Source of the DNA: a virus
Length of the DNA: 39,646 nt
IMG/VR virus record: IMGVR_UViG_3300037461_000591
Direction: 5' to 3' (one strand)
The position numbers and the translations under genes were made by a program. The notes under the pieces were generated by a model, which saw only the letters and a list, made by a program, of their open reading frames with translations, was not told the DNA's origin and ran no database searches. Shown here one piece after another: positions 2,392 through 39,646 of the stretch (the stretch's first letter is position 1; each line of letters opens with the position of its first letter).

Positions 2392-3078
2392 TCAAAGCAG
2401 ACGTGATAAATTTCTTTTCTGATCAATAACCGTAAATTCTTTTAATGCTTCAATAAGCTCTAAAAGTTTTTCTTTTGACGGTTCTGGTAAATGGTTATTC
2501 CCTGAATCAGCACCTATGTTTACTTGTTTTGGATTGCAAGCTTTAATTAATTGAATCATATCTTCTAAATCAAAATCCATAACAGGTTCAATAGTTACGA
2601 ATCTGTCATAAAAACTATCTATTAATTTGTGCATAAAACCGGCTCGCTCAACTGGACGAGGACAATTTTTCATTATATCTGGATAAAAACGATTTGTTTC
2701 AATAGTAGTGCAAATAGACGATCTATTAGGGATGTTTCCTAACAGGTTTAATATCCTTTTTGGATTTTTTGTTTGAAATAAATAACTACTAAACCAATAT
2801 TTATTACAATGTTCAATAGTCTTGTTTATCCATTCAATAGGAATGTCATCAGCAAATATATCACAACTTGACCCAACGAAAATAAAAGTATTTTTCCTTT
2901 GAAGCCAATTTTCTGAATTAAGTTGCGTTTTTAATTCTGATTCATCAAGCCTGACTGGTTTTTGTTTCCCCCAACGCTTCATATAGCAATAAGTACAACC
3001 GTGAGGACACTCCCCTTTTATCGGATTCCAAGTATGGGTAATCCAACTATACATATTCCCCTTTGATTCTCTTAACAT
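2392..3078 (-). CDS. Phage Gp37/Gp68 family (DUF5131) protein with a radical-SAM-like CX3CX2C triad
   Basis: 228 aa. The N-terminus SWITHTWNPIKGECPHGCTYCYMKRW matches the hallmark WNP..G C...GC..CY start of Gp37/Gp68 proteins. Confidence 0.75.
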   Translation of the reverse strand: MLRESKGNMYSWITHTWNPIKGECPHGCTYCYMKRWGKQKPVRLDESELKTQLNSENWLQRKNTFIFVGSSCDIFADDIPIEWINKTIEHCNKYWFSSYLFQTKNPKRILNLLGNIPNRSSICTTIETNRFYPDIMKNCPRPVERAGFMHKLIDSFYDRFVTIEPVMDFDLEDMIQLIKACNPKQVNIGADSGNNHLPEPSKEKLLELIEALKEFTVIDQKRNLSRLL

Positions 3079-16034: not shown

Positions 16035-16247
16035 TTATTTATTTGTTATAATATCTTCATAAAATTTACCATCCTTAAGAGGACTAGGGTTGCTCAGATG
16101 GACTTTCCAGATTGAGAATGCAGTCCAGAAAAATCCGACACAGGCAGCACCCCGGATGAATCCATGAGTAAAGGCTCCGCATAAAATACAAGCAAGGAAT
16201 AAAAACCATCGCCAGTATTTAACTAAAACAATTAGAATTGATTTCAT
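16035..16247 (-). CDS. Holin/antiholin-like membrane protein, 70 aa
   Basis: WRWFLFLACILCGAF and GAACVGFFWTAFSIW; lies immediately downstream of the amidase. Confidence 0.55.
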   Translation of the reverse strand: MKSILIVLVKYWRWFLFLACILCGAFTHGFIRGAACVGFFWTAFSIWKVHLSNPSPLKDGKFYEDIITNK

Positions 16248-16249
16248 AT

Positions 16250-16702: not shown

Positions 16703-16715
16703 TGTCTTATATTTT

Positions 16716-16859
16716 TCAGTTTATATTCTTCGTGCCGATGCGTACCGGATCAACGGTTTGCTTCTCATTAAATTTAATATACTCATCAATCTTCAGGCAA
16801 TGTGTTTCTCCATCGTCCCATTCAAAAGTAACATAACCATTTTTAATTGATTTTATCAT
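16716..16859 (-). CDS. Small hypothetical protein, 47 aa (below the ORF-track cutoff)
   Basis: My translation is MIKSIKNGYVTFEWDDGETHCLKIDEYIKFNEKQTVDPVRIGTKNIN. It has an ATGA overlap with the upstream gene at 16856..16859. Confidence 0.45.
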   Translation of the reverse strand: MIKSIKNGYVTFEWDDGETHCLKIDEYIKFNEKQTVDPVRIGTKNIN

Positions 16860-19027
16860 AGTGAGGTTAAAGCAAATTGTAAATTACCACAAACACTTAA
16901 TCCAACAAACCCGCCTGCTGTTGGGGAATAATAACACATTATCACATTATTCTTCAATATATCTCTATTTATATCATCAGTAACAACAAATGGAGTATCA
17001 AGTGCTAATAGTCCTAATTGTGTAAAAGTCGAAGTGGTTTTTATAAATGTTCTTTCATCTTCGTGAAACGTTGGATTTGGGCAAGAAAATAATTCCAGAG
17101 AATCAACTGCACCCTGCCTGCGTGTTATTATCATGTAATAAATAGAACCTTGTTTGAATATTCCAGGGCAATAATAATGATTATTAACCCCTCCCATTGA
17201 AACAGGATTAAATACTGGATTCTGAGGATCACGAGTCCAATTAATCAAATCAGTTGACCATGCTACTCCAACCTTTCGAGTTGAAGCACCCGGCCCATTT
17301 GTGACAAACATATAATAGGTACTACCTACTTTTATTACAGCCTCAACATCAAGATGGTTTGTATTATCATCCCATTGCCCTGGCGCACCGTGAGCATAAA
17401 CCGGATTCCCTGCATATTTAGACCACGTAAGACCATCTACTGAAGTTGCCAATCCTATCTGTCTCAATAAACCTGTATCTGCATTTGCCCCTGCATAAAG
17501 CATATACCACGTTGCCCCTTCTTTCCAAACCTGTGGAACATATAACATAGTATGATCCCATGTTCCATGAGCACCAAAATTCAATAACGGTTTATTCACC
17601 GTATCTTCTGTCCAATTAAATCCATCTGGCGAAGTGATTCTATTTATTAATGTATTTGGGAACGTCCCATAAACCCCGTACATATTATACGTACCACTTT
17701 CAACCCAAATAGATGACCAGATTGTGCGAACTGTAACACTACTTATTGGTCTGAATATTGCAGGCCATTGATTGAGTAATGAATAATCACCAGAATATTG
17801 TGTGGCATTTTTTATATTAGCTTTTGAAAGGTTTTCATCAAATGAGAATATTTCTTTTAATATTACCCTGTCATCATGCGAATTATTATCACATTTTACA
17901 TAACATCTCGTATTCAGACTACCCCCAAATGCTATCAATTTAATTTGATCAAGTTCCTCAATATGCCATGCATCAGGATTAGTGGAGTCATATCTGCCTC
18001 TCCCTGTTGAATTAGTCACCCTCGCAAGTGCATTCCATAAACTTACATTTGATCGATCCCAAGCAGAATATGGAATATTAAGCATGGAATCTGCAAGATT
18101 ATGATTTGATGAATCTCCTGCATGGTTTGAATCAAGTTCATACCCTGCCGTTGTATAATATGTTGGAATTGTTGATGGGGTATCGTCAGACTTATAGGGT
18201 AAATATATTTCTCTGAGATAACTGGCTCCTGCCGTGACTTTATAAAGTGAATAACCATGATCCAGCATCCATGAACTTGCTTCTGCACAATAATAAGCAT
18301 TATCTTCACCAACAAGTGAAGGAGTTAATATCTCATTAGATAATATATTTATACAATTACTACCCAAAAACAAAAACCAATCAACATCAGGAGTACCACT
18401 TTTTGCATTTGCAGGAGTTTGAACAGTTGAATATATCTTTATCTGTGTTAATGGAGTAAACATATAGGGCGGAGCAAACAAACAATTATAAGTAAGATGT
18501 TCATTTGATGCCATTGTAAGATTCCCACCGTATTGAGTTCCATCAATATATAACTGGCATATCGTCCCATTCCTTATAAAAACAAAATCATGGAATAGAT
18601 TGTCATAATAATATTCATTAGGAATACACACCCCTGATTGAACATAAACATTATTAGCCTTATGATACCATATCCTTAAATTCCCAGGATTGCCAGTTCC
18701 ATAAGGTATCTGAATCAAATAATTCTGACCATTGGATGTCCTGACGATAGAGTTTTGATTAACATTACGTAACTTTCCTTGCCAATAAGCAGTAAACACA
18801 GTCCCAATATCTTTTGAAGATGCCGGGGTAAAATTCTCATCCTCTGCCCCCAAAGCCTGTGCCGACTTAAAACAAGAAGGTAATATTGTAACAGGAGAAC
18901 CTCCTAAAGAATCAGGTAAAGACAACCCACTTCGAGTTCCCTCTTTAACCCATAAGTCATTATGTTGCGTCCAGTACGCACTCCACGAAAAACCTGTGAG
19001 AAATTTCTGAATTATCTCTCGTCTCAT
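16856..19027 (-). CDS. Tail-associated LamG-like plus five-bladed beta-propeller glycoside-hydrolase-like protein (candidate depolymerase/receptor-binding protein)
   Basis: 723 aa. The N-terminal half has a concanavalin/LamG-like pattern (FVFIRNGTICQLYIDG). The C-terminal ~280 aa has blade-like repeats (GTWDHTMLYVPQVWKEGATWYMLYAG; IGLATSVDGLTWSKYAGNPV; VGVAWSTDLINWTRDPQNPVF), as in GH43/GH32/GH130-type propellers. Confidence 0.65.
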   Translation of the reverse strand: MRREIIQKFLTGFSWSAYWTQHNDLWVKEGTRSGLSLPDSLGGSPVTILPSCFKSAQALGAEDENFTPASSKDIGTVFTAYWQGKLRNVNQNSIVRTSNGQNYLIQIPYGTGNPGNLRIWYHKANNVYVQSGVCIPNEYYYDNLFHDFVFIRNGTICQLYIDGTQYGGNLTMASNEHLTYNCLFAPPYMFTPLTQIKIYSTVQTPANAKSGTPDVDWFLFLGSNCINILSNEILTPSLVGEDNAYYCAEASSWMLDHGYSLYKVTAGASYLREIYLPYKSDDTPSTIPTYYTTAGYELDSNHAGDSSNHNLADSMLNIPYSAWDRSNVSLWNALARVTNSTGRGRYDSTNPDAWHIEELDQIKLIAFGGSLNTRCYVKCDNNSHDDRVILKEIFSFDENLSKANIKNATQYSGDYSLLNQWPAIFRPISSVTVRTIWSSIWVESGTYNMYGVYGTFPNTLINRITSPDGFNWTEDTVNKPLLNFGAHGTWDHTMLYVPQVWKEGATWYMLYAGANADTGLLRQIGLATSVDGLTWSKYAGNPVYAHGAPGQWDDNTNHLDVEAVIKVGSTYYMFVTNGPGASTRKVGVAWSTDLINWTRDPQNPVFNPVSMGGVNNHYYCPGIFKQGSIYYMIITRRQGAVDSLELFSCPNPTFHEDERTFIKTTSTFTQLGLLALDTPFVVTDDINRDILKNNVIMCYYSPTAGGFVGLSVCGNLQFALTSL

Positions 19028-19028
19028 T

Positions 19029-19631
19029 TTAACTTATTTGAGATATTGAATATACTATATCACTTCCTACCTTCATCCATGCAATTATATTATCTGCGCT
19101 GGCCGTTGTATCTATCGTCCCTCCGCCGGAGTTCTTTGTAAACATTGTCCCTAGTGCCACAGTATAGCCTCCTGTACCATCTATGATCAGTTCTATAAAC
19201 CCTCCGTCACCGTCCGAGGCCCCTGTTAGGTTGACGGTAGTATTCCCGGTTATTGTTGCAGCTTTAAAGTCTTTATGTGTCGTTGCGTCCAGTGCCAGAG
19301 GATTAGCAAAAGCCGGAGCCTGTGCTGCTGATGGAGCCGGGGCATAAGCTGTTGTCTCTGTATATGCAGCCGATCCAAGACCCAGTATAGACTTCACTTC
19401 AGCCAGTGTCTTCTTCACCCATGAACCTGAAGATCCCACTTGAAAATCACTAGCAGCATCCGTCGTCGGTATCCCTAGTATCGTCTTAACCTGAGCCAAT
19501 GTTTTAACTAACCATGAGAACGTAGTAGGGCCGCTAACTATAAAACTGCTTTCGGCTGATGCAGTCGGTTTGCCGGAAATCCCATCCCAGGTTCCACCTC
19601 CTTCTATTGTAACATTGATAGTGTCTGCCAT
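19029..19631 (-). CDS. Tail fibre protein, 200 aa
   Basis: It has a duplicated motif SWLVKTLAQVKTILGI / SWVKKTLAEVKSILGL (19374..19520), a Gly/Thr-rich C-terminal domain, and a position inside the tail module. Confidence 0.6.
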   Translation of the reverse strand: MADTINVTIEGGGTWDGISGKPTASAESSFIVSGPTTFSWLVKTLAQVKTILGIPTTDAASDFQVGSSGSWVKKTLAEVKSILGLGSAAYTETTAYAPAPSAAQAPAFANPLALDATTHKDFKAATITGNTTVNLTGASDGDGGFIELIIDGTGGYTVALGTMFTKNSGGGTIDTTASADNIIAWMKVGSDIVYSISQIS

Positions 19632-28413: not shown

Positions 28414-28961
28414 AATCCTGTATTCTGATCAATTGAATCAATAAGCTGAAGAGTATCATAAGGAATCCTCGACAGCGAGACCTCTGATCCGTCCTGCGGG
28501 TTGTTGAACATCGTATTCACTATACGACGGATACACTCGTTAGCTGTCTTATTTGCGGCTCCTGCTGTAAAAACAACCTCTACATAATAAGTCTCCGACC
28601 CCCCTCCGATCTGAATTGTACCGTAAGTTACTGCCGGACGCACCTTAACCTGGTTCATCCCTTTTTGTTCATAAGTTGTTGATACCCCGCAAACCGAAAG
28701 TGCAATAGCAGGAGCGGAAGCAACAGGACTCACCGGCAGTTCATACCAGCCGGACGAGTCCCTGTCTCCCTTTTCAAAGTAAGCCGTATATTCTTTTGAT
28801 ACACAAGACAGACCTGTCCGGTTTTCAAGCCACTCACGGGCTACAGTGATAAGATCACGAATCCGAGAATCCATGTCTGTACCCTTATAACCCATGAGAG
28901 TTTTCATCTCTTCAACAGTCACGGGCTCCTGAATCCCGGTAGAATTAACTTTTAAGTCCAT
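28410..28961 (-). CDS. Head-tail connector protein (gp6-like)
   Basis: 183 aa. VTVEEMKTLMGYKGTDMDSRIRDLITVAREWLENRTG matches the N-terminal signature of gp6-like connector proteins. Confidence 0.75.
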   Translation of the reverse strand: MDLKVNSTGIQEPVTVEEMKTLMGYKGTDMDSRIRDLITVAREWLENRTGLSCVSKEYTAYFEKGDRDSSGWYELPVSPVASAPAIALSVCGVSTTYEQKGMNQVKVRPAVTYGTIQIGGGSETYYVEVVFTAGAANKTANECIRRIVNTMFNNPQDGSEVSLSRIPYDTLQLIDSIDQNTGL

Positions 28962-28973
28962 CCTGATAGGTAT

Positions 28974-29147
28974 TTACTTCGTTTCTCTTTCTCTGGCTTC
29001 TTTGTCCTCTTTGCCCTTGACCTCTTCTGCAAAGCCCTGCTCTTTAAGCCTGGTAGCATGATTGTCAGTGACAAGTTTCACGGTTCCTTTTTTGTCAACA
29101 TGCTTGTTGCCGTGCTTGAAATCCTTGATAAATCTTACTTTTTTCAT
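28974..29147 (-). CDS. Small Lys-rich protein, 57 aa
   Basis: ORF track 28974..29213. The start is moved to MKKVRFIKDF because the upstream part overlaps a terminator hairpin. Confidence 0.5.
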   Translation of the reverse strand: MKKVRFIKDFKHGNKHVDKKGTVKLVTDNHATRLKEQGFAEEVKGKEDKEARERETK

Positions 29148-29164
29148 GGTTTGTATTTTTTTGT

Positions 29165-29201
29165 TTTTAAAAATAAGAGGGAGAGGGTTGCTCCCCCTCT
29201 C
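29165..29201 (-). terminator. Intrinsic terminator / attenuator after the capsid gene pair
   Basis: A 7-bp GC-rich stem GAGAGGG/CCCTCTC (29181..29187 with 29195..29201) is followed on the minus strand by CCTCTTATTTTTAAAAAC. Confidence 0.55.
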
Positions 29202-29228
29202 GATGACTGGCATTTTAAAGAGTGCCCT

Positions 29229-29762
29229 CTAATAACGAAGTCCGATTTTGAGAGCGAGTTTTGATGTTATTGAGCAAGTATTTGCATCACCACCCACAGC
29301 CTCAAATTTAAGGTAACGCCATAGTACGCCGGTCGTTACATCTTTAAGCGACTGTGAATGACTTGTAGCAGTAGTAAGCTGTGCAGCAGGAAGATAAGCG
29401 GTAGTTGGATGCATTAGACATGAATCCAGCTTTGTCCAGTATGTCCCGTTAACACTGCCATAAGTGTTATAAGTCACATGGTTGCCTGCAGCCCTGCCGA
29501 CGGTGAGCACTGTATCATATTCAAAAAGAAACTGATAATAATACAGTGCGCTCTTATTGACTGCAAAGATCCAGTAGAGGGTTGTTGCCCCTCCGATGGA
29601 GTCTTTCAGCGACGTAGCATCCCAGTCCCCGGTATGGGTATAGTTGAATGCCACTTTATAGGTCTCGTTTGTTCCGAGCGTGTAAGTCGTCCCGGTTGTC
29701 TGTCCGAGGGAAATTGTCATCAGCGCAAATATCCCTGCAAGAATTAAGATTAACTTTTTCAT
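29229..29762 (-). CDS. Signal-peptide-bearing beta-rich protein, 177 aa (function unknown)
   Basis: It has the N-terminal signal-like MKKLILILAGIFALMTISLG, an aromatic-rich beta pattern, and ends ...KLALKIGLRY. It lies between the major capsid and connector genes. Confidence 0.7.
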   Translation of the reverse strand: MKKLILILAGIFALMTISLGQTTGTTYTLGTNETYKVAFNYTHTGDWDATSLKDSIGGATTLYWIFAVNKSALYYYQFLFEYDTVLTVGRAAGNHVTYNTYGSVNGTYWTKLDSCLMHPTTAYLPAAQLTTATSHSQSLKDVTTGVLWRYLKFEAVGGDANTCSITSKLALKIGLRY

Positions 29763-29782
29763 CGTATTGTCCTCCTTTGTTT

Positions 29783-31042
29783 TTATGATGCTGTTATTTC
29801 TGCGAGTATATCTGCTATTGCATCGTAAACGAATGCATAGATGTTCGGAGCCGGGAATTTAACGGCTGCCCTCACTGAAGCAGTGATGGTCTTGAGATCA
29901 TATTCCGGGTCTGTGCTGTCCTGATCCCATATCTTCAGTTCAAGTCCTCTCTTTATGTAGAGGGTGACACGCTTAAAGTCACCGACAAGAACATGAGTGT
30001 CTGCTATCAGGCTCGAAGGAACGATCCTCATTCCTGAAACATTCATCCCGCCCGATGTTACAAATGGAGGGATTATGTACTGACCGTTTGCATCCTTTGT
30101 CATTTCCATCTCTGCAAAAGTAGCAGGGCTGACAAATGTAGCATTTGGAACGAAGTTGTATTCTGCAATCTGGTTGGCAGCTGCACGGATAGCATCAAAG
30201 ATGTTAGCTTTGAATATCTTACCGTCGAGCGAGTTGCTGGCATAAGCCGAAGCGGTGGTTATAATACCGTCCAGCTCAGGACTTGTCCCGTTGCCTTCAT
30301 AAAGCTGATCCTCAAGGTCGCGCTCTACCATCGGCAATAGTTCATTCTTGATCTGTGTCAGCATCTCATCCCAGTCCTCAAGTGCTTCGTTGGTGACCTT
30401 GATAAAGGTTCCTATTTTTTCTACCTCTGCACTCTTCTGGATGTATGTCATGTCGCTCTGTCCGTACTGTCCTGCTTCAGCAACAGAGTCTGCTCCTGCT
30501 GTACGTGCAGAACGTTCTACCCATGTCACACGGTTCGAGTTGGTAGTTCCGCGGTTTACAACGTCGAGCATCAGTATCTGACGATCCGGGAGCTTCTCGA
30601 CTCCTGGAGTACGCATCGGAACGATAACGGCATTTGCCAGGGCACTGTCACTAAGTTCCGTATATGTATCAATCGTCGATACCTTTAGTAAAAGCCTGGG
30701 ATCGAAGTCCTTCATCTCAAAGACGAACGCGCCTCCGGGTTTCAGGTTCTTGCCTTCAAGAAGCTGGGCTTTCCCTTTCTCCTTGTAAGCTTTTTCAAAC
30801 TCTCCGAATAGAGAGACAGGTTTGCCCAGGGGCTTGTCTTTCTCGAGCTGGATGGCATCAAGCTGATCGCTCAGTTTCTTGATCGAGAGTTCTCCAGCAT
30901 TTGCTTTGTTCACAAGCTCTTCGATCTTATCCTTTGGAGCTTTCTCTTCAATGAGCTTCTTCATCGCTTCCGTAGCATCATTGAACTTTTTGACCTCCGC
31001 ACTGATCTGGTCTGTCAGAGCTTTGATTTCAATGTCTGTCAT
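29783..31042 (-). CDS. Major capsid protein, HK97 family
   Basis: 419 aa. An N-terminal coiled-coil delta-domain-like region is followed by a Phage_capsid-like body. It lies directly after the HK97 prohead protease. Confidence 0.88.
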   Translation of the reverse strand: MTDIEIKALTDQISAEVKKFNDATEAMKKLIEEKAPKDKIEELVNKANAGELSIKKLSDQLDAIQLEKDKPLGKPVSLFGEFEKAYKEKGKAQLLEGKNLKPGGAFVFEMKDFDPRLLLKVSTIDTYTELSDSALANAVIVPMRTPGVEKLPDRQILMLDVVNRGTTNSNRVTWVERSARTAGADSVAEAGQYGQSDMTYIQKSAEVEKIGTFIKVTNEALEDWDEMLTQIKNELLPMVERDLEDQLYEGNGTSPELDGIITTASAYASNSLDGKIFKANIFDAIRAAANQIAEYNFVPNATFVSPATFAEMEMTKDANGQYIIPPFVTSGGMNVSGMRIVPSSLIADTHVLVGDFKRVTLYIKRGLELKIWDQDSTDPEYDLKTITASVRAAVKFPAPNIYAFVYDAIADILAEITAS

Positions 31043-31043
31043 G

Positions 31044-31763
31044 TTAATGATTTTTTAAAGTTGATAATATAGATTCCAGTATTTGTTTCGGCTCAACGGC
31101 CTTCAGAGTGGGATTAGCTCCCGGCTCCTGTACCTTGAGTGAATTTACAATGTTTTGAATTTTCCCTATCTCGGCTTCAAACTGCTCGCAGGTCTCGTCG
31201 GTATATTTACCGTTCTTAAGTCCCCGGTTCAAAGCATCGAGTCTTTTGTTAAGGTTGGCCATTATATCAGCTATCTCTCCTTTTGCCGATATAACCTCTG
31301 TCAATGAATTTGATCCCCAGGTTACAGATGAGTATTCCCATAGTTTCAGTTCAATGAGCTTTCGATATTGAAGATTGCCATTAGCATCCAGGACGTCTTC
31401 GCGCTTGACAATGTTATATCCGATAGAAAGCTCGGTGATGATCTTGTCAACATGAAGCTGGAACTTATCCTGAGAAAACGTATCCTTGCCGAACATAGTC
31501 TCAAAATACAACCCTTTATCATCTTCCTTGAGTACCTTCGGTATCCCGATAGGCTCCCACGAAGAATGCTGCCACAGATGTTTTATCCGTGGCCGTTCTG
31601 CTGATGGTCCTCGCTCCTGAATGGTCTTAAGAAAAGCACCGGGAAGCACCATGTCATTGTCACTGTCGATAGTATTAAAGACAGAACAATAACCCGTCAC
31701 GATGCCTTGCTTCTCATCGACATCCTTGAGTTCAAAATTACTCTTTATCTCGAAGTTTTTCAT
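31044..31763 (-). CDS. Prohead maturation protease, HK97 family (S78)
   Basis: 239 aa; GIVTGYCSVFNTIDSDNDMVLPGAF and HLWQH are characteristic. Confidence 0.85.
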   Translation of the reverse strand: MKNFEIKSNFELKDVDEKQGIVTGYCSVFNTIDSDNDMVLPGAFLKTIQERGPSAERPRIKHLWQHSSWEPIGIPKVLKEDDKGLYFETMFGKDTFSQDKFQLHVDKIITELSIGYNIVKREDVLDANGNLQYRKLIELKLWEYSSVTWGSNSLTEVISAKGEIADIMANLNKRLDALNRGLKNGKYTDETCEQFEAEIGKIQNIVNSLKVQEPGANPTLKAVEPKQILESILSTLKNH

Positions 31764-31774
31764 ATCCTATGTAT

Positions 31775-32527
31775 TTAAACATCAACATTATATATAATCG
31801 TACATCTGCAGTTCACGATCTCTTCAGCAGATCCGTTAGGATCGCACGGAAACAAAAGGCCCGGAGCATACTTATATTTCATGTCAACTTCTCCGAGGGC
31901 CTCATAAGCCAGGTGTGTAGGGCGTATTCCGGGAAGATGTGACGTGAACCATAATTTCTTAATCTCGTAATCTTCAGCTACCGCAGCGTCATAACTTCCT
32001 TTATTGCTTGAACTCATAACCTCTGTACGTGCGATCCTTTCTGCCTGGTACTTGTTTATCTCTGTCAACCCGTTGACAAGCTCCCGTCGCATATTTCGCT
32101 GAATCTCAGGTATCCCCAGTCCCCGCTGAATACCATCCTCAAGAATTTTGTCTATCATACCATTGACTATCTTAGTCTGAGAGTCCATCAGAAGACCAAG
32201 AACTTTAACAGATCGCTCCCGGATGTATAAACGAAAATAATCCTCCCAGTAATCAATATTTTCATTTGCCTTTTTTGTCATCCTCTCGATTCGCTTCAGA
32301 GTATCAACGGCAAATATCGATCCGGTCTTAATCCAAAGGTCTGTAATATAATCACTGAGATAATCAGGCTTCATCAATTTCGGGACCCGCTGCTTGAGGC
32401 TGTCGATGTCCATGTCTCCAGCGACATCAATTACGCTTTGCTGAGTCTTGAGCAATACCCGCTGACCTTGTTTCCAAAATAATCGTGTCAAAGAACTTCG
32501 TTTTATCTCATCAGTTATTAACTGCAT
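31775..32527 (-). CDS. Minor head protein, SPP1 gp7 / Mu F-like
   Basis: 250 aa; the C-terminal NCRCTIIY motif and the position after the portal gene support the call. Confidence 0.8.
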   Translation of the reverse strand: MQLITDEIKRSSLTRLFWKQGQRVLLKTQQSVIDVAGDMDIDSLKQRVPKLMKPDYLSDYITDLWIKTGSIFAVDTLKRIERMTKKANENIDYWEDYFRLYIRERSVKVLGLLMDSQTKIVNGMIDKILEDGIQRGLGIPEIQRNMRRELVNGLTEINKYQAERIARTEVMSSSNKGSYDAAVAEDYEIKKLWFTSHLPGIRPTHLAYEALGEVDMKYKYAPGLLFPCDPNGSAEEIVNCRCTIIYNVDV

Positions 32528-33845
32528 GGCGATAATCCTTTATTTTCAATGCTTTTAAAACTCCTTCTGTCAACGCACTGTCAGGCATAAGTCCCAGCTC
32601 GTCAAGCGGAACAGTACCGGCTGATTCATAAACAATATCCATCCGCGGATCGTCCATTCTCTCAGCACCGGCAGCCTCACGAATCTCATTCTTTGTAAAG
32701 CTCCTTGAAAGTACCATCCATGCGACAAGCTCTGCTTTATTCTTCTGCAATACCGGTATATGTGAATAATCAGCCCTGATAGTCTGTCCCTCTTCACCAA
32801 AAAGAGGAGCCAGCCATCTTGTCAGTTTCTCAAGGTAAGCATCAAGTGAAGGCATTATAGCATCTTCATACAGAGCTTTCTTTGCTTCGAGATAATTCAT
32901 GTATGTCCTGTCTTTTGACCCTGAGATCAACATTGAAGGAACATTATACGCATCACATATACGGCCACCAAAAGCAGACAGCGAGTCCAATATAGCCATC
33001 TCTTTAGCTGTCATCCCGAAGCTCGTCCACTTATGATCCTTGCTTGTTATTACTATTGATCCTGCTTTTGACGCTCCGCTGTACTCTTCGCGAAACTGTT
33101 CTTTTATCTTGCTCATCAGAGGCTTACCGATACCTCCGGGATTTGGCTTTCCGTCCTCTCCGAGTATCGTTAATATGCCGACTGCTCCCTGATGCTGAAA
33201 CGAAGATACCAAAGCATCATAAGCAGACCCGGAACCGACAACTGACTTAAGGATAGGCTTCAGTCGGCTCATTCCCAAAAGATGACCGCTGCCCTGAGTA
33301 TCATAGTCAGGATTAAACTCTTTCCAATGCAGTACCTGTTTCTTTTCGTAATCCATGACACTGCCATTCATCAGGAACTTATAACCCTGAATAGGACTAA
33401 GAACTGTTCCCAGAACAAACTCCATCCATTGAGGAGGAAGGACGTCCAACCGAATGGGGAGGTTGGCATTAAGTCCATTAGGTACGGTCTCGAATGCATT
33501 AAAACAATTTCCAAATATAAAGTAAAACGTTAGTGAAGCCTCAATAAACTCTGCACGGCTCATGTAAGGATTTGGATTGTTCAACAGCTGGATCATCCTC
33601 CCGGCCTCAACAATCTCACCGTCTTTGTCATACTGAAATACAGGAACGGTGCTAGCTGGTTCTGTTATCTTATTAATCACTGTGAATACATCTCCATTAC
33701 CGGTATATCCTTTAAGATAAGTGTCGTTCCCATAATCAGGATATATTGCTATGTTAGCTATCTGTCGAAGCACATAGTCATCCAATGTGCTTACCTTTGA
33801 GAGCTTTGAAGGGAATAGGTTTGATATTCTGCTGAATAATCCCAT
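32511..33845 (-). CDS. Portal protein
   Basis: ORF track 32511..33911. The start is moved to MGLFSRISNLF (ATG 33845..33843), just downstream of the TerL stop. The ~444-aa size and its position between TerL and the MuF-like gene fit a portal. Confidence 0.85.
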   Translation of the reverse strand: MGLFSRISNLFPSKLSKVSTLDDYVLRQIANIAIYPDYGNDTYLKGYTGNGDVFTVINKITEPASTVPVFQYDKDGEIVEAGRMIQLLNNPNPYMSRAEFIEASLTFYFIFGNCFNAFETVPNGLNANLPIRLDVLPPQWMEFVLGTVLSPIQGYKFLMNGSVMDYEKKQVLHWKEFNPDYDTQGSGHLLGMSRLKPILKSVVGSGSAYDALVSSFQHQGAVGILTILGEDGKPNPGGIGKPLMSKIKEQFREEYSGASKAGSIVITSKDHKWTSFGMTAKEMAILDSLSAFGGRICDAYNVPSMLISGSKDRTYMNYLEAKKALYEDAIMPSLDAYLEKLTRWLAPLFGEEGQTIRADYSHIPVLQKNKAELVAWMVLSRSFTKNEIREAAGAERMDDPRMDIVYESAGTVPLDELGLMPDSALTEGVLKALKIKDYRHAVNN

Positions 33846-33856
33846 ATAATAGTTTT

Positions 33857-35149
33857 TTATACTACATCCCCCTGGTCGTTGTCCGTCCCTGTCAGATATG
33901 CTACAAGCCATACAAGAGCATCTATCCTGTTCGGGCTCTTTCCCTCTTTAGGTATCCATGTACACATCTCATCTTCAAGTTTTGGAAGTGAACCGACATG
34001 ATGAATCCTCTTTTGTTCATAAAGAGACTGAACAGGCTCGGCCCTTGTCACCTTGCCCCGTGAAGCCCATACCCCTTTATAAGAGACATTGCGGTCAATC
34101 TGACGAATGACTGTCTCTACCAGGTCGCCTCCGTTATTTGTCTCAGCAACTATACGATCGAGTTTCTGTTTGTTATAAACGTCAATAGCTTTACCGGCCC
34201 AGACAAGCGGAGAGAATATCCCGGAGAGGTCTTCAGTTATATATATCTCTCCCATAGCATCCATGCCACCTATCATAATACCACACTCGTCGGATTCATC
34301 TGTAGAAGTTACTGAGGGGTCTATTGCTACAGCTGCCTTAACAAGCTCAGGACACTTGAACACACGTGAAGCATCAATCATCTTCAGTGACCACAATGCC
34401 CCCTCAATATCCTCAAGTACCTCGGCGTTAAGTTCCTGACGTCCCAGCCGTGTTCCTTCATATTTCTTGACTATCGTATTGAGGAAGGCAGGAGCAAGGT
34501 TTTGAATGTTCTCGTAGGTAGTGCCGGATGTAACATATACTGTCGGGTCTTTGATCATTGCACGGATCATCTTTGTAGGCCGGGGCGTTGTCGTTGCTAT
34601 GACCCGCGGATGAGTGCCAAGACGGAGACCGAGCATCATATTATCCCATGTCTCCTCGGCATACCGCCATGAGGCCAGCTCGTCGCACCAGGCAGCATGA
34701 CACTGAGGACCACGCAACCTATCCGGCTCGTCAGCTGTGAAGATCAAAGCATGAGCCCCGTTTTTCCATGTGAGTTTACGTTTTGAAGGTTCATACTTTG
34801 GCATGTCCCAGGGAGGAGAACAGCGAAGTATCCCAGACTCCCCTTCGATCATAATGTCACGGGCGTCGCCTGCTGTTGCTCCTATGAAGTGAAGAATAGG
34901 GTACTGATCTTTCCAGATACGCATTGTCTCAGCTCCCGTGCGGGTTTTCCCGTTTCCGCGGCCTGCCTTGATGAACCATACTGTCCAGTCACCGGGAGGC
35001 TCGATCTGCGAAGGTCGTGCGTTGAGCGACCAGCGATACTGAGCTACCTGGAGAAGCTGATTAAGCTCTGTCTTTGCTTCCGGTCTTAATGAGCTTACTA
35101 ATTCTCTTGATAAGTTCATCATCAGACAAAGTATTAAAACTATTACCAT
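33857..35149 (-). CDS. terL: Terminase large subunit
   Basis: It has a Walker A-like KAGRGNGKTRTGAE, a Walker B-like region, and a C-terminal nuclease-like part. The real start is probably an internal Met at 35122 or 35119. Confidence 0.88.
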   Translation of the reverse strand: MVIVLILCLMMNLSRELVSSLRPEAKTELNQLLQVAQYRWSLNARPSQIEPPGDWTVWFIKAGRGNGKTRTGAETMRIWKDQYPILHFIGATAGDARDIMIEGESGILRCSPPWDMPKYEPSKRKLTWKNGAHALIFTADEPDRLRGPQCHAAWCDELASWRYAEETWDNMMLGLRLGTHPRVIATTTPRPTKMIRAMIKDPTVYVTSGTTYENIQNLAPAFLNTIVKKYEGTRLGRQELNAEVLEDIEGALWSLKMIDASRVFKCPELVKAAVAIDPSVTSTDESDECGIMIGGMDAMGEIYITEDLSGIFSPLVWAGKAIDVYNKQKLDRIVAETNNGGDLVETVIRQIDRNVSYKGVWASRGKVTRAEPVQSLYEQKRIHHVGSLPKLEDEMCTWIPKEGKSPNRIDALVWLVAYLTGTDNDQGDVV

Positions 35150-35468
35150 TGTTTGTGAGATCTAACTGTTGTGTTTCAATATATCCTCGTTTCTTTCCCT
35201 TAGTCTTTAAAAAAAATATCGTAGCGATTGTATCTTTATCCTGTATCTGTTTATGAAGCATTGATTCAGCAAAATCAAGAGTTACCTCTGCAATATCATC
35301 TACTGCGGCTTTATACTTAATATCAGCCTTATACCAGTCATAATGGGTACTTCTCTTGATACCAACTTTCTCACACGCCAACGTAATAACACCAAGTGCT
35401 TTAATAAGAGCTTTTATCATCTCTTTCTTTTTTAAGGCCGTTTGTTGTTTAGTGTAAGACATTGCCAT
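35061..35468 (-). CDS. terS: Terminase small subunit (HTH-containing)
   Basis: 135 aa, lying directly upstream of and overlapping terL. The N-terminal HTH-like segment is ITLACEKVGIKRSTHYDWYK, followed by ...IFFLKTKGKKRGY. Confidence 0.7.
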   Translation of the reverse strand: MAMSYTKQQTALKKKEMIKALIKALGVITLACEKVGIKRSTHYDWYKADIKYKAAVDDIAEVTLDFAESMLHKQIQDKDTIATIFFLKTKGKKRGYIETQQLDLTNNGNSFNTLSDDELIKRISKLIKTGSKDRA

Positions 35469-35988
35469 TCTTTCTAATTACTATCTCAGGATCGAGCTTT
35501 CTCATCCTGTCTATTATTACCTGACAGTATTTAGGGTCAATCTCCATTCCGTAACACTTTCGGTTGAGTTGATGTGAGGCTATCATTGTCGTCCCGCTTC
35601 CCGCAAACCCATCAAGAACAATATCTCCCTCCTTGGTGCTATTAGATATCTGATAAGCAAATAAACCCACTGGCTTCATAGTTGGGTGTTCTGCATTTCT
35701 ATTTGGCCTCTCAAAGTTTAACACAGTTGTTTGTTTTCTATCTCCATACCATCCATGCGCAGCACCCTCAACCCATCCATATAAACAAGGCTCATGCTTC
35801 CATTGATAATCCTGTCTCCCCATTACCATTGAGTTCTTAACCCACACCAAACACTGTTTCATCATTATCCCTGCCTCTTTCATTGCCCTTCTAAAATTGT
35901 ACCCCTCCGAATCAGCATGCCATATATATGAATATCTGATAATCTTATCTTCTTTGGAATCGTCATCAGATTGTAATATTAAATACTT
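35449..35988 (-). pseudogene. N6/N4 DNA methyltransferase lacking its N-terminal DPPY-containing region (truncated or remnant)
   Basis: The C-terminal part has the SAM motif VLDGFAGSGTTMIA and EHPTMKP. The frame is open upstream only to the stop at 35989..35991 and reads KYLILQSDDDSKEDKIIRYSYIWHADSEGYNFRRAMKEAG, with no DPPY and no ATG before 35883. Confidence 0.6.
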
Positions 35989-36119
35989 TCAATCAGCATC
36001 TTGAGTGAAAATGGTTTTTCACAACAGTAAAAAATAATTATAACTTAAATCACAGAGAAAATGAAATTAACTTATTAACATAGTTATCAACATATATAGA
36101 TAGTTAAATATACTACAAT

Positions 36120-36146
36120 AAAAAAAGCCTCCTGGTCAGGGAGGCT
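36120..36146 (-). terminator. Rho-independent terminator ending the early/middle transcription unit
   Basis: On the minus strand, AGCCTCC-CTGACCA-GGAGGCT is followed by TTTTTTATTG. It lies 54 nt downstream of the stop of 36200..36421. Confidence 0.8.
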
Positions 36147-36199
36147 CCGCTTAAAGATCAATGATTACTTTCTCATAGGCAAAGAATAACTGGTTAATA

Positions 36200-36421
36200 C
36201 TAGAACTTGACACCGTTAAAGACCGTGTCGGGCCATTTATCTTTGTCTGGCTCGTAAATATCTATAGATCGTTTCGATGCCAGGAACTCTATATTGTCGT
36301 CTCTGAGTAACAGATAATACCGATCTTCTTCGACAATCTCATAAACCCCTTTCAGTGGATCCCCGTTTTTCTTTGGAGGGTGTATCTCAAAATAAGCAAG
36401 GCCGGGTTTATAGTCTGTCAT
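36200..36421 (-). CDS. Hypothetical protein, 73 aa
   Basis: ORF track; last gene before the terminator. Confidence 0.65.
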   Translation of the reverse strand: MTDYKPGLAYFEIHPPKKNGDPLKGVYEIVEEDRYYLLLRDDNIEFLASKRSIDIYEPDKDKWPDTVFNGVKF

Positions 36422-36443
36422 TTGACTGGTTCTTTAGAGGGAG

Positions 36444-36785
36444 TTATTCATCCTGCCCATACTCGGGAATATCGTCTGATTCTTTTGGTTGATTAAGTGC
36501 CAGTTTATTTTTTTCCATAAATTCCCGCACGTCCCATGCAGACAGTGGCGCACAATGAAGCATCTTAGCCCAATGCTTTGCGACCTCTTCCGTGACAGGA
36601 TTTATAGCGTATATGGCAGCATGACCAAGTAGCCGACTAAATCCCGGATTATGTTCTGTTTCGGGTACATCAATACGAAGCATATTAGCCCCTGCAATGT
36701 TCTGCTCTGAACATTTACCTGCAATTCTGTTATGACCGAACAATTCTACGATTGCCCATGATTCAAATTTTTCTGTTAAATCCAT
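36444..36785 (-). CDS. Conserved phage hypothetical protein, 113 aa
   Basis: The pattern VELFGHNRIAGKCSE...MLRIDVP...AIYAINPVTEE recurs in many unrelated phages, to my recollection. Function unknown. Confidence 0.7.
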   Translation of the reverse strand: MDLTEKFESWAIVELFGHNRIAGKCSEQNIAGANMLRIDVPETEHNPGFSRLLGHAAIYAINPVTEEVAKHWAKMLHCAPLSAWDVREFMEKNKLALNQPKESDDIPEYGQDE

Positions 36786-36814
36786 CTTTCTTGTTATTAG
36801 TTTGTTTCTTTAGC
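36783..36814 (-). repeat. Junction repeat copy A (30/32 identical to 37637..37668)
   Basis: catctttcttgttattagtttgtttctttagc. The 24-nt core 36791..36814 is identical to 37645..37668. It spans the start codon of 36444..36785 and the last six codons plus stop of the radical SAM gene. Confidence 0.9.
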
Positions 36815-37639
36815 TAATTTATATTTTAAATATCCTTCAATTATAAAGTATTCATCACTACAAGTGCCATCTGTAAAATAATTAAGAGAATTACAACTTG
36901 TTTCTACTGTTCTCCAAAAAACAACATCTTTCCCATATACATTAAATTGTTGTGCGCCACAAAATTGTCCTGTTTGTCTATAATTATGAGAAAAATTCTT
37001 ACAATATTCTTCAAATAAATCAATATCTTCTTGAAGAAAACTTAATCTTGTATCTGTTGAAATTCTTCGTATCTGAATGTATTTTACATTGGGGAATTTT
37101 GCTGTAAACACTATAAGATTATAAACTTCGTTAATATTATACCGGTTTAAAACAATAGAAATACGCACATTCTCCCCTGATTGTGGTATGATCTTGTCCC
37201 ATCGGGGTATTTTTTTAGTTGTCATAATCTTATAATTTGTGGCAGGATTTAATGTGTGTATTGAATAACCTATTTCTCCATGCATTTTTTGTATAGACAA
37301 TATTTTTTTCTCAGCTAAATATCCATTTGTACGTACTCCCACAATAAACCCGTATGTTTGTAGGTGATCTATAATTTCGTCAAGATACTTATATTGTAAT
37401 CCATCGGCAGTTTGTCCTGTTAAATATAGTTTATCAATATTATTATCTCGACATTGTTGTAAAAATAACCCAAAATTTAACCAATTATTAAAATGAACAT
37501 TAAGTTGATTTTTCCCCTGTAATTCACATTGAATGTCCTTGCCTAAACAAAAATAGCAATCCACATTACACCTTCCTAACAAATTTATGTTAGCGAATGA
37601 ATACTTGTCCCTTTTTCTATTTTTATTTATTACTTGCAT
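36797..37639 (-). CDS. Radical SAM protein, 280 aa (subfamily not recognised)
   Basis: It has the CX3CX2C site in LLGRCNVDCYFCLGKD and a GGEP-like LYLTGQTADGL. It is very AT-rich. Confidence 0.75.
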   Translation of the reverse strand: MQVINKNRKRDKYSFANINLLGRCNVDCYFCLGKDIQCELQGKNQLNVHFNNWLNFGLFLQQCRDNNIDKLYLTGQTADGLQYKYLDEIIDHLQTYGFIVGVRTNGYLAEKKILSIQKMHGEIGYSIHTLNPATNYKIMTTKKIPRWDKIIPQSGENVRISIVLNRYNINEVYNLIVFTAKFPNVKYIQIRRISTDTRLSFLQEDIDLFEEYCKNFSHNYRQTGQFCGAQQFNVYGKDVVFWRTVETSCNSLNYFTDGTCSDEYFIIEGYLKYKLAKETN

Positions 37640-37668
37640 CTTATTTGTTATTAGTTTGTTTCTTTAGC
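37637..37668 (-). repeat. Junction repeat copy B
   Basis: catcttatttgttattagtttgtttctttagc. It spans the start codon of the radical SAM gene and the stop region of the nucleotidyltransferase gene. Confidence 0.9.
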
Positions 37669-38758
37669 GGGGGTTACGCATTTCTATTAAAAGATTGTGT
37701 ACGAATTTAGGATTAACATGAGTTGGTAATTCTGACCTCTCGAATGCCTCATCCATTTGAACTTTTTTTTGTTCTATCAATCCGATTATTTCTTCATAGC
37801 TCGCCTCCCCACGTCTGACACTCAGTAGCCATTCTCTATTAGGACGGACAAGATTGATTCCCTTGCCTTGTGCTACTTCAATAGCCATATCAAGCATCCG
37901 TAAACAATGCATAAGGTTCTTTCCATCATAACCTTTGCCATGCTGTGCGTTATCGTTATATCGCACCGGATTACGTTTTTCCACCCACTCCCAATATTCT
38001 TTATATTCCTTGCAATATTGAGAATACCCGTTAAGATTGTAGTAAAGAAATCCCTCTAACATAAGACCTTTGGGAATTTCACTATGCCGTAATTGGTTGC
38101 TTTCATCTAATTCTATCCCCCTAAAGTTGTGTGTTTCTATATCGGCATATCGGGGATTCTCATTCTTGGTTTCTGCAAGATAGTCATAGTAAACCTTATA
38201 AATTTGTTCACCATTAGGAAGTTCGGCTAATCCACAAAATTCCTGTTTCTTTTTATGCTTATCTAACCACTGTTTTGCCAACATGGTATATCCATCTTCC
38301 TTTTCAAAAATATAGCAGAAGTCTAAAGGTGTTTTGCGTTCCTTATCTATCGGGTTAACTATTTTTTTATTCAGCCCCCTTGCTTTCTTTATTTGTGAGA
38401 TAGAATATCCACCAAAGGTATTACGGCACTTTGTTGTCAAAAACTTATCCTTATTATCATATAATAGTTTAATTTTGGGGGACATAAATAAAATCTTGTC
38501 TTTGGGCACGAATAATTCCTCAAGAATATTGGGGTTATTCTGTTCAAGTAAGTGAACGAACCTGTTAAGTTCATAATAAACTATATCACTTGTAGTATTA
38601 TTAATCTGTTCTGAATATCCTTTACCTAAAAGAAATTCATTAGGAAGCATATAAATCCCCCTAATGTCGGTATCGGATGTAGGTAAATCAAGTCCGTAAG
38701 CCTTGCTCCCAGCGATAACTTCATAAATTAAATATGGTCGAACTTCTTCTATTGTCAT
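37664..38758 (-). CDS. Pol-beta superfamily nucleotidyltransferase (PF10127 / RlaP-like)
   Basis: 364 aa. The N-terminus VIAGSKAYGLDLPTSDTDIRGIYMLP matches the GS..YG....SD.D.RG signature of this family. Confidence 0.7.
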   Translation of the reverse strand: MTIEEVRPYLIYEVIAGSKAYGLDLPTSDTDIRGIYMLPNEFLLGKGYSEQINNTTSDIVYYELNRFVHLLEQNNPNILEELFVPKDKILFMSPKIKLLYDNKDKFLTTKCRNTFGGYSISQIKKARGLNKKIVNPIDKERKTPLDFCYIFEKEDGYTMLAKQWLDKHKKKQEFCGLAELPNGEQIYKVYYDYLAETKNENPRYADIETHNFRGIELDESNQLRHSEIPKGLMLEGFLYYNLNGYSQYCKEYKEYWEWVEKRNPVRYNDNAQHGKGYDGKNLMHCLRMLDMAIEVAQGKGINLVRPNREWLLSVRRGEASYEEIIGLIEQKKVQMDEAFERSELPTHVNPKFVHNLLIEMRNPR

Positions 38759-38790
38759 CTTACTTGTTATTAGTTAGTTGTTTCTATTCT
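38756..38790 (-). repeat. Junction repeat copy C (degenerate, with a 3-nt insertion)
   Basis: catcttacttgttattagttagttgtttctattc aligns to copies A and B with an agt insertion and a few substitutions. This copy is entirely intergenic. Confidence 0.6.
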
Positions 38791-38801
38791 GTGGAATTAG
38801 T

Positions 38802-39287
38802 TTATTTTATTGTCTCTAACTGCTTTTGCAAACAGATTTCGAGTTCATCTATACATCTTTGTATCCTACAAAATTCACACTCTGGCTTATTACAATCACC
38901 AATACCTTCTATCCAATTAGGACAACTATCTGGTTGTTTCTTAAATAACAAATAGATAGCTTCATTTATTAATGTCTTCTCAATCATTTCATCGGTTATC
39001 TCTTGGCTCAAAGGATCAGGATGAGAGGAGAGGTAGTCGTCAACAAACTCTCCTAATCCCTTTAATGAATAATCTACCTTTAGTGCATTATGGAAAGTCC
39101 AATCAGCAAAATTTACAAGCTCTTCCCTCCGGTCTATTCTCTGACTGGCAATTACTTTATTTTCAAGCCACTCGGCATACATCTTAGTAAATGTAATTGG
39201 CTCATCTATAAAAGACGGTATTTCTGATCCCTTGCCAGTTTCGTTTTCAAATTTCTGTCTTATTTTTTTTCTTTCTGCTGTCTTCAT
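38802..39287 (-). CDS. Hypothetical protein with a C-terminal Cys cluster, ~161 aa
   Basis: ORF track 38802..39332. The start is moved to MKTAERKK (ATG 39287..39285), which forms a TAAGATG junction with the upstream stop. It has CPNWIEGIGDCNKPECEFCRIQRC. Confidence 0.65.
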   Translation of the reverse strand: MKTAERKKIRQKFENETGKGSEIPSFIDEPITFTKMYAEWLENKVIASQRIDRREELVNFADWTFHNALKVDYSLKGLGEFVDDYLSSHPDPLSQEITDEMIEKTLINEAIYLLFKKQPDSCPNWIEGIGDCNKPECEFCRIQRCIDELEICLQKQLETIK

Positions 39288-39288
39288 C

Positions 39289-39646
39289 TTATTGGTGTTT
39301 AAATTGGTTAGCATATTCTTCCATAGCTTCAATAATAAGAGGCCAATTATAGTTTACTGTTGTGCAATCAACGTGCTTTAGTAGAATTGAATCCGCTGTC
39401 ATCTCTGGCTCTACTGACTTAAATTGCTTGGCGTTCTTTGAAGTATCTGGAAATTGTTCTGTGATGTCTATTCTGTTAACATCAGGATTAAGTACGTTGG
39501 TGTCTTTTATGTTTGGATATACTGACTTAAACCGTGGTATTTCTTCACCAGCTAAATACCTTGAAAAGGTTTCACATCCCATACATGGATCGGTAAGGAC
39601 ACAAGTAACGGCGGTACTGTAAGGGCATGGATATAGTTTACTATTA
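39289..39646 (-). CDS. C-terminal part of the wrap-around gene that starts at 513
   Basis: The frame is open from the window end to the stop at 39289..39291. The ORF-track Met at 39582 is internal and equals position 63 in copy 1 of the overlap. Confidence 0.7.
   Translation of the reverse strand, partial: NSKLYPCPYSTAVTCVLTDPCMGCETFSRYLAGEEIPRFKSVYPNIKDTNVLNPDVNRIDITEQFPDTSKNAKQFKSVEPEMTADSILLKHVDCTTVNYNWPLIIEAMEEYANQFKHQ
39520..39646. repeat. Terminal direct repeat, copy 2 (identical to 1..127)
   Basis: Exact 127/127 match to the window start. Confidence 0.95.

Follow-up and report, generated by a model that had tools for sequence, protein, structure and literature searches.

The viral DNA stretch IMGVR_UViG_3300037461_000591, analysed here at its full length of 39,646 nucleotides (hereafter the window), carries towards one end a gene for a 364-aa Pol-beta nucleotidyltransferase (NTase), directly followed by a gene for a 280-aa radical S-adenosylmethionine enzyme (rSAM) and by one for a small phage protein. 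An earlier note, made from the letters alone, had taken the two enzyme genes for a functional module that might repair or modify RNA or nucleotides during counter-defence. Our comparisons do not support this view: NTase and rSAM are two independent accessory cassettes with no conserved functional unit, and the rSAM family is coupled, in other genomes, to NAD+ salvage genes. It is through this link, and not through the NTase-rSAM pairing, that the locus is of interest.

Gene content and composition of the locus

The three open reading frames (ORFs) that the earlier note had placed between positions 36,444 and 38,758 are all present on the minus strand. They are given below in the order of transcription together with the features around them; L067 is an independent assembly of the same phage (next section), AF2 stands for AlphaFold, and the source of each assignment is in brackets.

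38802..39332, minus strand: 176-aa ORF, upstream of NTase in transcription order (ORF list)
38756..38775, minus strand: 20-nt leader or junction, AACTAATAACAAGTAAG-ATG, before NTase (exact match)
37664..38758, minus strand: NTase, 364 aa, RlaP-family (PF10127) Pol-beta nucleotidyltransferase, a single-gene accessory cassette (Pfam, PHROG, comparison with L067)
37637..37656, minus strand: the same 20-nt leader before rSAM, and downstream breakpoint of the swap between NTase and a 74-aa ORF (L067 alignment breakpoints)
36797..37639, minus strand: rSAM, 280 aa, radical SAM enzyme of an uncharacterised conserved family, linked to NAD+ salvage in other genomes (Cys motif, AF2 model, neighbourhoods)
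36783..36802, minus strand: the same 20-nt leader before the 113-aa gene (exact match)
36444..36785, minus strand: 113-aa phage protein, function unassigned (phrog_29525, 3e-10)
36200..36421, minus strand: 73-aa ORF, the last before the hairpin, 100% conserved in L067 (ORF list; no family hit)
36148..36124, minus strand: hairpin resembling an intrinsic terminator, with a 9-bp stem, 5 G-C pairs and a T-run (consensus scan, pattern match only)

Transcription thus runs on one strand from the 176-aa ORF through NTase, rSAM, the 113-aa gene and the 73-aa gene to the hairpin, beyond which lie a short DNA methylase ORF, the small and large terminase subunits, portal, protease and capsid genes. Given that the T-tailed hairpin follows the 73-aa gene and stands just before the methylase and terminase genes, it is plausible that the locus closes an early or accessory transcription unit, in agreement with the 3' position in an early operon proposed earlier; a sigma-70 promoter scan gave matches at chance level and was not used. 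NTase and rSAM are separated by 24 bp. The small protein that follows rSAM is indeed a phage protein, as its match to phrog_29525 indicates; its gene is kept with rSAM in L067 and adjoins rSAM in no other locus.

The AT-richness that had been reported for both enzyme genes holds fully for one of them. The spot counts given for it (16/60 and 34/60 G+C) are exact, and the rSAM gene, with a G+C content (GC) of 28.5% and a GC at third codon positions (GC3) of 0.19, is a true outlier, among the most AT-rich genes of the genome (gene mean 40.0%, standard deviation 5.3), but for the NTase gene the claim was overstated, since at 36.1% GC it is only mildly AT-rich.

The nucleotidyltransferase and its linkage to the radical SAM gene

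The assignment of NTase to the PF10127/RlaP-like enzymes proved correct. The protein matches the Pfam profile PF10127 RlaP over residues 10-208 with 72.7 bits, well over the curated cut-off of 23 (E 5e-20), and phrog_388 at 1e-52, and its GS...DxD Pol-beta signature (G17-S18 and D29-T-D31 inside GSKAYGLDLPTSDTDIRG) is conserved in L060, another locus in which both enzyme genes occur. The family is common in phages, with homologs of NTase in 652 GenBank phages and matches to 4,657 proteins of a large protein collection at E<=1e-10, with identities of up to 86%. RlaP enzymes add one or two nucleoside monophosphates to the 3'-OH of damaged RNA in vitro without a partner, as demonstrated for PfRlaP and PaRlaP (Pseudomonas), RlaP helps to restore aminoacylation of over-trimmed tRNA, and NrdC.11 of phage T4 is a member of the family (PMC12776372, a December 2025 preprint). 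NTase is therefore a known kind of gene, an RNA-repair cassette, and by homology to the characterised RlaPs it would add one or two nucleotides at the 3'-OH of nuclease-damaged RNA or tRNA, after which a ligase, here that of the host, could restore RNA function; in this capacity it would act as a counter-measure against defences of the anticodon-nuclease type.

While these features liken NTase to the characterised RlaPs, its surroundings set it apart. Characterised members lie in operons of RtcB or other RNA ligases, and in a survey of jumbo phages RlaP tracks RNA ligases (PMC7824862), the genomic association from which the family takes its name. In the window, no RNA ligase, kinase or phosphatase partner was found among the ORFs at 536-19631 (Pfam census) or 28797-37677 (precomputed Pfam labels), the two stretches on either side of the tail module at 19.6-28.8 kb, and this agrees with the earlier remark that no ligase or kinase was visible. 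Consequently, NTase would have to rely on host enzymes.

The linkage between the two genes was examined from both sides. For rSAM, 145 loci were fetched (80 of the 201 JGI loci among them), which formed 101 clusters at 95% identity, 71 of them with at least 4 kb of flank; for NTase, 19 loci were fetched, representing 12 other distinct loci. Importantly, the rSAM-side sample includes an independent assembly of the window phage, L067 (JAOQIB010003496.1, GCA_025490975.1), which is 99.99% identical to the window over 8,881 bp (window 28797-37677) and keeps rSAM and the genes downstream of it, but in which the NTase (window 37678-38795) is replaced by an unrelated 74-aa ORF (L067 97-321) with no family match. 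Similarity to the window picks up again in the 36 bp preceding the NTase leader. This near-identical genome with another ORF in the NTase slot amounts to a natural knockout, and we conclude from it that the adjacency of NTase and rSAM is a by-product of cassette shuffling.

The wider samples agree with this conclusion. RlaP is found near rSAM in only 2 of the 71 non-redundant rSAM loci (the window and L060), and rSAM in none of the 12 other distinct NTase loci. The closest relatives of NTase are followed by an SLT-like gene (L078, 86% identity), an unrelated 278-aa gene (L162, 85%), a portal gene (L080, 81%) or a 74-aa ORF and then an HNH gene (L164, 81%), and their DNA similarity to the window is restricted to the NTase ORF (37679-38760). 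The 278-aa gene of L162, considered as a possible diverged rSAM, was discarded, as it has neither the Cys motif nor any similarity. L060 has, in this order, an RlaP gene (77% identical to NTase), a 250-aa unknown gene and an rSAM gene whose product is the closest relative of the window rSAM (74%); it has nothing else in common with the window. Synteny in relatives, on which the earlier note had made its module depend, is thus present in L060 and otherwise absent, and the linkage of NTase and rSAM is real in one lineage, yet dispensable and a property of neither family. Taken together with the recurrent partners of rSAM, which are NAD+ salvage and not RNA-repair genes (see below), these data go against a functional module. 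The statement that such a pair was undescribed in phages stands, as no description was found in the literature.

The breakpoints of the cassette swap coincide with a 20-nt leader that lacks a Shine-Dalgarno-like purine run. Its consensus, AACTAATAACAA[GA]NAAG-ATG, has three exact matches in the window, where 0.07 would be expected by chance, and these lie solely before the NTase, rSAM and 113-aa genes. L067 also has three copies (81-99, 340-358 and 1194-1212), including one before the 74-aa replacement ORF, and none was detected in 80 other loci. The leader may be a recombination or translation-initiation module for cassette exchange. We read the locus as a variable accessory stretch at the end of the early region, built of independent single-gene cassettes that each stand behind the same 20 nucleotides.

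The radical SAM family and its genomic neighbourhoods

The rSAM gene encodes a genuine radical SAM protein. The cysteines of the cluster motif C24-N-V-D-C28-Y-F-C31 (CxxxCxxC) are invariant across the family, and the score of 24.4 bits against PF04055 lies below the cut-off of 29.5, which close homologs pass (precomputed Pfam). The AlphaFold model (pLDDT 80.7, pTM 0.81) shows the six-stranded (beta/alpha)6 barrel of radical SAM enzymes, with six beta-alpha units, and all its significant Foldseek matches in the PDB are radical SAM enzymes, the best being MoaA, DesII, SkfB, SuiB, BlsE, TYW1 and viperin. Because these matches reach TM-scores of only about 0.5 (12-19% identity), a generic similarity of fold, rSAM could be placed in the superfamily by profile and structure searches, as had been suggested, but not in a subfamily. 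Foldseek searches of BFVD returned nothing closer than the PDB radical SAM enzymes, and sequence and profile searches of the PDB returned no relative.

No curated NCBIfam family claims the protein either. It scores 33 bits against archaeal MoaA (E 3e-8, cut-off 325) and 27-33 bits against the MoaA equivalogs overall (cut-offs 284-325), 32 bits against viperin (NF038283, E 7e-8, cut-off 180) and 15 bits against NrdG2 (cut-off 131), while the PADLOC pVip profile gives 41.9 bits (2e-11). The housekeeping assignments that might have explained rSAM away are accordingly not borne out, the scores for MoaA, NrdG and viperin being far under the curated cut-offs. In JGI the protein is named 'MoaA-like'.

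At least 720 proteins in a collection of 5.8 billion match rSAM, the best-scoring 120 at 60-74% identity, and among 1.84 billion cluster representatives there are 209 matches at E<=1e-3 and 55 at E<=1e-30. The family has several invariant motifs (FANINLLGxCNxxCxFCxGKDI, TGQTAD, RTNGxLA, YxQxRR and FWRT), further conserved motifs (RTNGYLA and RRISTDTR), many conserved Arg and Lys residues, and a single additional invariant cysteine, C63. Its members come from IMG/VR phage contigs of 15-375 kb and from metagenome-assembled genomes of DPANN archaea (Aenigmatarchaeota, Woesearchaeota, Nanoarchaeia and Pacearchaeota), of bacteria of the candidate phyla radiation (CPR; Saccharibacteria and Sungbacteria) and of Clostridia, Bacilli, Erysipelotrichaceae and Peptococcaceae. 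GenBank phages gave neither a tblastn match for rSAM nor a DNA match for the locus, indicating that this phage and the rSAM family are absent from the records of cultured phages. We conclude that rSAM belongs to a small, sharply delimited, highly conserved and uncharacterised family and is, by curated cut-offs, none of the characterised radical SAM enzymes.

The gene neighbourhoods were screened for NAD genes with exemplar-seeded phmmer (E<=1e-5), so that the counts are lower bounds. At least one NAD salvage gene was found on the same strand in 19 of the 71 rSAM loci (27%), namely genes for nicotinamide or nicotinate phosphoribosyltransferase (NAMPT/NAPRTase), nicotinamide mononucleotide adenylyltransferase fused to Nudix (NMNAT-Nudix), NrtR, NadE, PncA and PncC. 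NAMPT/NAPRTase genes occur in 15 of the 71, always on the strand of rSAM and in 12 of these 15 within 600 bp of it. NAD genes were found in 5/19 of the loci from IMG/VR phages, 5/13 of those from GTDB genomes and 9/38 of those from other metagenome contigs, whereas the same screen detected no NAD gene in 15 loci anchored on NTase (168 kb in total), which came from sources of the same kinds. The arrangements are as follows.

L063-L066 and L089: NrtR, NMNAT-Nudix (NadM/NatV-like), NAMPT and rSAM, with NAMPT and rSAM abutting or overlapping; the operon member of L063 is 71% identical to the window rSAM
L052 and L054: NAPRTase, Nudix, NadE, NMNAT, rSAM, CinA/PncC and NrtR
L104: rSAM, isochorismatase (PncA family) and NAPRTase
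L051 and L056 (DPANN archaea): rSAM and NrtR, in L056 with an NAPRTase-like gene two ORFs upstream
L011, L012, L034, L040, L085 and L135 (viral): NAMPT/NAPRTase, one or two tiny non-conserved ORFs, and rSAM
L002 (a 316-kb phage): Nudix and rSAM

Such same-strand adjacency, recurring in unrelated genomes, shows that rSAM genes are tied in their genomic position to the phosphoribosyltransferase step of NAD+ salvage, in the amide (NadV) as well as the acid (PncA/PncB) route. No small partner ORF conserved next to rSAM was found across the loci. The link between the family and NAD+ salvage appears to be undescribed, as full-text literature searches found no paper that ties a radical SAM enzyme to NrtR, NadV, NAMPT, NAPRTase, NAD+ depletion or phage NAD+ salvage.

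The rSAM domain also occurs within giant ORFs. P0134 (2,927 aa) combines NAPRTase, isochorismatase, NAPRTase_N, rSAM, HAD, Nudix (NUDT9/ADP-ribose-pyrophosphatase type), CN-hydrolase and NAD synthase domains, P0125 (4,008 aa) adds NMNAT to this set, and P0130, P0131 and P0136 join rSAM to HAD, with or without Nudix and an NAD-dependent epimerase. As these ORFs may represent read-through of operons, we counted them solely as same-strand co-linearity. The contig of P0134 (ENA ERZ1426844) carries four consecutive giant ORFs (3,894, 2,927, 940 and at least 2,895 aa), each with many unrelated enzyme domains, for example NadB-like FAD_binding_2 together with B12-rSAM and PHP, which suggests either that these are unusual polyproteins or that the genes were called with a genetic code that is wrong or reassigned.

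Some of the viral loci have further features of their own. In L011, and also in L012 and L085, a second, different radical SAM gene (299 aa, Radical_SAM 1e-14; L011 3268-4167) precedes the NAPRTase-rSAM cluster, and a gene for a PTH2 peptidyl-tRNA hydrolase (L011 6821-7252) overlaps the stop of rSAM. In L040, a 339-aa ORF with a Hint/intein-type domain (1451-2470) lies upstream of the NMNAT-Nudix/NAMPT/rSAM cluster.

The window itself has a second radical-SAM-like gene (2392..3078, minus strand), whose 228-aa product has the N-terminal THTWNPIKGECPHGCTYCYMK and is of the DUF5131/Gp37Gp68 type (PF07505 4.9e-13, Radical_SAM 7e-9, phrog_2045 6.5e-20). It is AT-rich (32% GC, GC3 0.23) and lies within another low-GC accessory stretch at 0.5-3 kb. 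Beyond the hairpin, the DNA methylase ORF (35449..35883, minus strand) is just 144 aa long and matches positions 148-219 of the 221 of the N6_N4_Mtase profile, its C-terminal third, and the gap upstream of it (35884..36199) holds about 300 bp without an ORF; the methylase may be N-terminally truncated or frameshifted.

Possible roles of the radical SAM enzyme and comparison with known systems

What the comparisons above show is the identity of the genes, that NTase and rSAM are independent, and that the rSAM family is linked to NAD genes; the substrate class, the reaction and the counter-defence role are inferred. On balance, we consider it somewhat probable that the locus consists of independent accessory cassettes in which rSAM acts on an NAD-related nucleotide. 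Across phages, DPANN archaea, CPR bacteria and Firmicutes of anoxic habitats, the family lies within NAD+ salvage operons, mostly right after the nicotinamide/nicotinate phosphoribosyltransferase. The enzyme would direct its 5'-deoxyadenosyl radical at the ribose of an anionic nucleotide related to NAD (nicotinamide or nicotinic acid mononucleotide, NAD(H) or an ADP-ribose derivative), its product would feed or protect the phosphoribosyltransferase-dependent route to NAD+, and it would thereby help to sustain NAD+ during phage infection, alongside the salvage enzymes of the host. Abstraction of a hydrogen atom from such a ribose would agree with the Arg-rich surface that the family conserves, with its nearest folds, which act on nucleotides, and with the Nudix genes or domains that recur as its partners; MoaA, DesII, BlsE and viperin all abstract hydrogen from a nucleotide or nucleotide-sugar. 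Since the coupling is indifferent to the pyridine base, rSAM probably handles something common to both salvage routes. This could be the ribosyl or nucleotide moiety, a fragment derived from NAD or a precursor that lies upstream of the two bases. The strictly anoxic provenance of the family fits an O2-labile enzyme.

Several observations weigh against this proposal. In the sampled flank, 73% of the rSAM loci (52/71) have no NAD gene, and the window has none of NAMPT, NMNAT, Nudix and NrtR at 536-19631 and 28797-37677, so that for this phage the NAD link is guilt by association from other genomes, and its rSAM, standing alone, would have to work with host salvage enzymes. The giant fusions may be operon read-through rather than true fusions, and when their non-rSAM parts (HAD, Nudix, epimerase and N-terminal regions) were searched against all locus ORFs there was essentially no match; HAD does not occur as a separate neighbour of rSAM, which indicates that the HAD-rSAM link is not general. 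The recurrence of both enzyme genes in L060 with similar divergence (77% and 74%) implies some lineage-level linkage, and a few viral rSAM loci contain RNA-related genes (RNA ligase twice, PTH2 and cREC). Moreover, we know of no NAD salvage step that needs radical chemistry and can name no reaction for rSAM.

A more far-reaching form of the proposal, which we regard as possible but doubtful, has rSAM catalyse a step of NAD+ salvage or reconstitution that is sensitive to oxygen and new to science. DPANN archaea, CPR bacteria and anaerobic Firmicutes would use this step, and phages would have taken it over as a counter-defence that restores NAD+, the fourth of its kind and one that can operate with a single gene. 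The enzyme might convert an unsalvageable NAD-derived or pyridine nucleotide into a substrate of NAMPT or NAPRTase or, alternatively, supply the pyridine or ribosyl moiety. NAD+ is a central battleground between bacteria and phages, and the three phage NAD+-restoring pathways described since 2024 (NARP1-3) all consist of conventional enzymes. A radical SAM enzyme in NAMPT/NAPRTase operons would then point to reactions that current maps of NAD metabolism do not include, in organisms that range from phages and ultra-small archaea and bacteria to anaerobes of gut and sediment, and to a counter-defence visible only under anoxia, where most work on phage defence is not done.

Other explanations of the locus account for part of these data. 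That RlaP and rSAM together form one counter-defence module for RNA repair, RNA modification or nucleotide modification is what their layout would suggest, as their genes lie side by side on one strand, 24 bp apart and each behind the same 20-nt leader, and recur in the same order in L060 with one gene between them and similar divergence, the RNA ligase, PTH2 or cREC genes of a few viral rSAM loci pointing the same way; however, a natural variant of the same phage has rSAM without NTase, co-occurrence is limited to 2/71 loci on the rSAM side and 0/12 on the NTase side, the boundaries of the NTase cassette are those of its ORF, RlaP is active alone in vitro (PMC12776372) and the dominant partners of rSAM are NAD genes, all of which makes a joint module very unlikely. 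Hardly more probable is a viperin- or MoaA-like enzyme that turns an ordinary nucleoside triphosphate into a modified nucleotide (for example a chain terminator of the ddhNTP type or a cyclised purine), which would serve to shut off the host, to exclude superinfection or to modify the genome, with the NAD neighbourhood incidental. The best weak profile matches are indeed to pVip (PADLOC, 2e-11), viperin (NCBIfam, 7e-8) and archaeal MoaA (3e-8), and MoaA and viperin are among the top structural matches, but the scores (32 against 180 bits for viperin, 27-33 against 284-325 for MoaA), the TM-scores of just about 0.5 and the lack of a MoaA-type C-terminal cluster, C63 being the sole extra invariant cysteine, argue otherwise, and it would be left unexplained why, in different domains of life, rSAM is so tightly coupled to NAMPT/NAPRTase on the same strand.

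The NAD association could also mean no more than that rSAM and the NAD genes reside together in islands of accessory or auxiliary-metabolism genes and in stress regulons under NrtR control, rSAM having an unrelated role as a glycyl-radical activase, a cofactor maturase or an enzyme of DNA or RNA modification. The 52 of 71 rSAM loci without an NAD gene and the very heterogeneous phage contexts are what this would predict, as are PFL-activase folds in the Foldseek list (E about 1e-3) and, in the single case of L032, a 142-aa gene just upstream of rSAM (5556-5984) that matches the extreme C-terminus of NrdD, the glycyl-radical region, at 5e-6. Against this stand the NAD linkage, which is seen not only in phages but also in three distant cellular lineages and holds for the NadV-type and the PncA/PncB-type routes with ORFs often overlapping or abutting, and the control loci, at 0/15. 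An activase of the NrdG or pyruvate formate-lyase type is contradicted by the NrdG2 score (15 against 131 bits) and by the lack of a conserved small partner protein, the NrdD-like neighbour in L032 being the only one and not recurrent. We therefore judge co-residence unlikely, if less so than the two explanations above, and return to an rSAM that acts on an NAD-related nucleotide.

Compared with known radical SAM enzymes, rSAM resembles viperin and the pVips in its single cluster and its length, and it matches them weakly by profile (PADLOC 2e-11) and in part by structure, but differs from them in its score (32 against 180 bits), its own motifs (FANINLLGxCN, TGQTAD, RTNGYLA and RRISTDTR) and its genomic context. 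MoaA, the GTP 3',8-cyclase, is the top Foldseek match (1tv7, E 3e-7) and a weak NCBIfam match; nevertheless, the TM-score is 0.55 at 16% identity, rSAM lacks the C-terminal auxiliary [4Fe-4S] cysteines, its score is about one tenth of the cut-off, and no molybdopterin genes lie near it.

Among NAD+ systems, the closest are NARP2, the classical nadV-nadM (NatV) salvage of phages such as KVP40, and the NrtR-regulated prs-nadV and nadM-nadV operons of bacteria. Their gene set of NrtR, NMNAT-Nudix and NAMPT (bioRxiv 10.1101/2024.02.11.579819; PMC2330246) is the one that has rSAM in or next to it in L063-L066, L089, L034, L040 and L135, whereas the texts on NARP1/2 and the NrtR regulons make no mention of radical SAM, the word 'radical' being absent from them (bioRxiv 10.1101/2024.02.11.579819; PMC2330246). 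The window phage differs from NARP2 phages, which have NAMPT and NMNAT together, in carrying rSAM alone, with neither of the two in the scanned parts. NARP3 was ruled out as an rSAM-bearing pathway, as it consists of PnuC and NadR and has no radical SAM enzyme, and nrtX and nrtY, unknown genes of NrtR regulons (Rodionov 2008), occur in aerobes and are left undescribed in that paper. Finally, in the extended NARP1 pathway the phosphatase Adpp acts on ADP-ribose-1''-phosphate to yield a usable salvage substrate and thereby counters aRES (bioRxiv 10.64898/2026.01.28.702374). Adpp differs from rSAM in chemistry and family, and the analogy is conceptual only, but it provides a precedent for a phage NAD-reconstitution operon that has gained an enzyme able to make an unusable NAD fragment salvageable.

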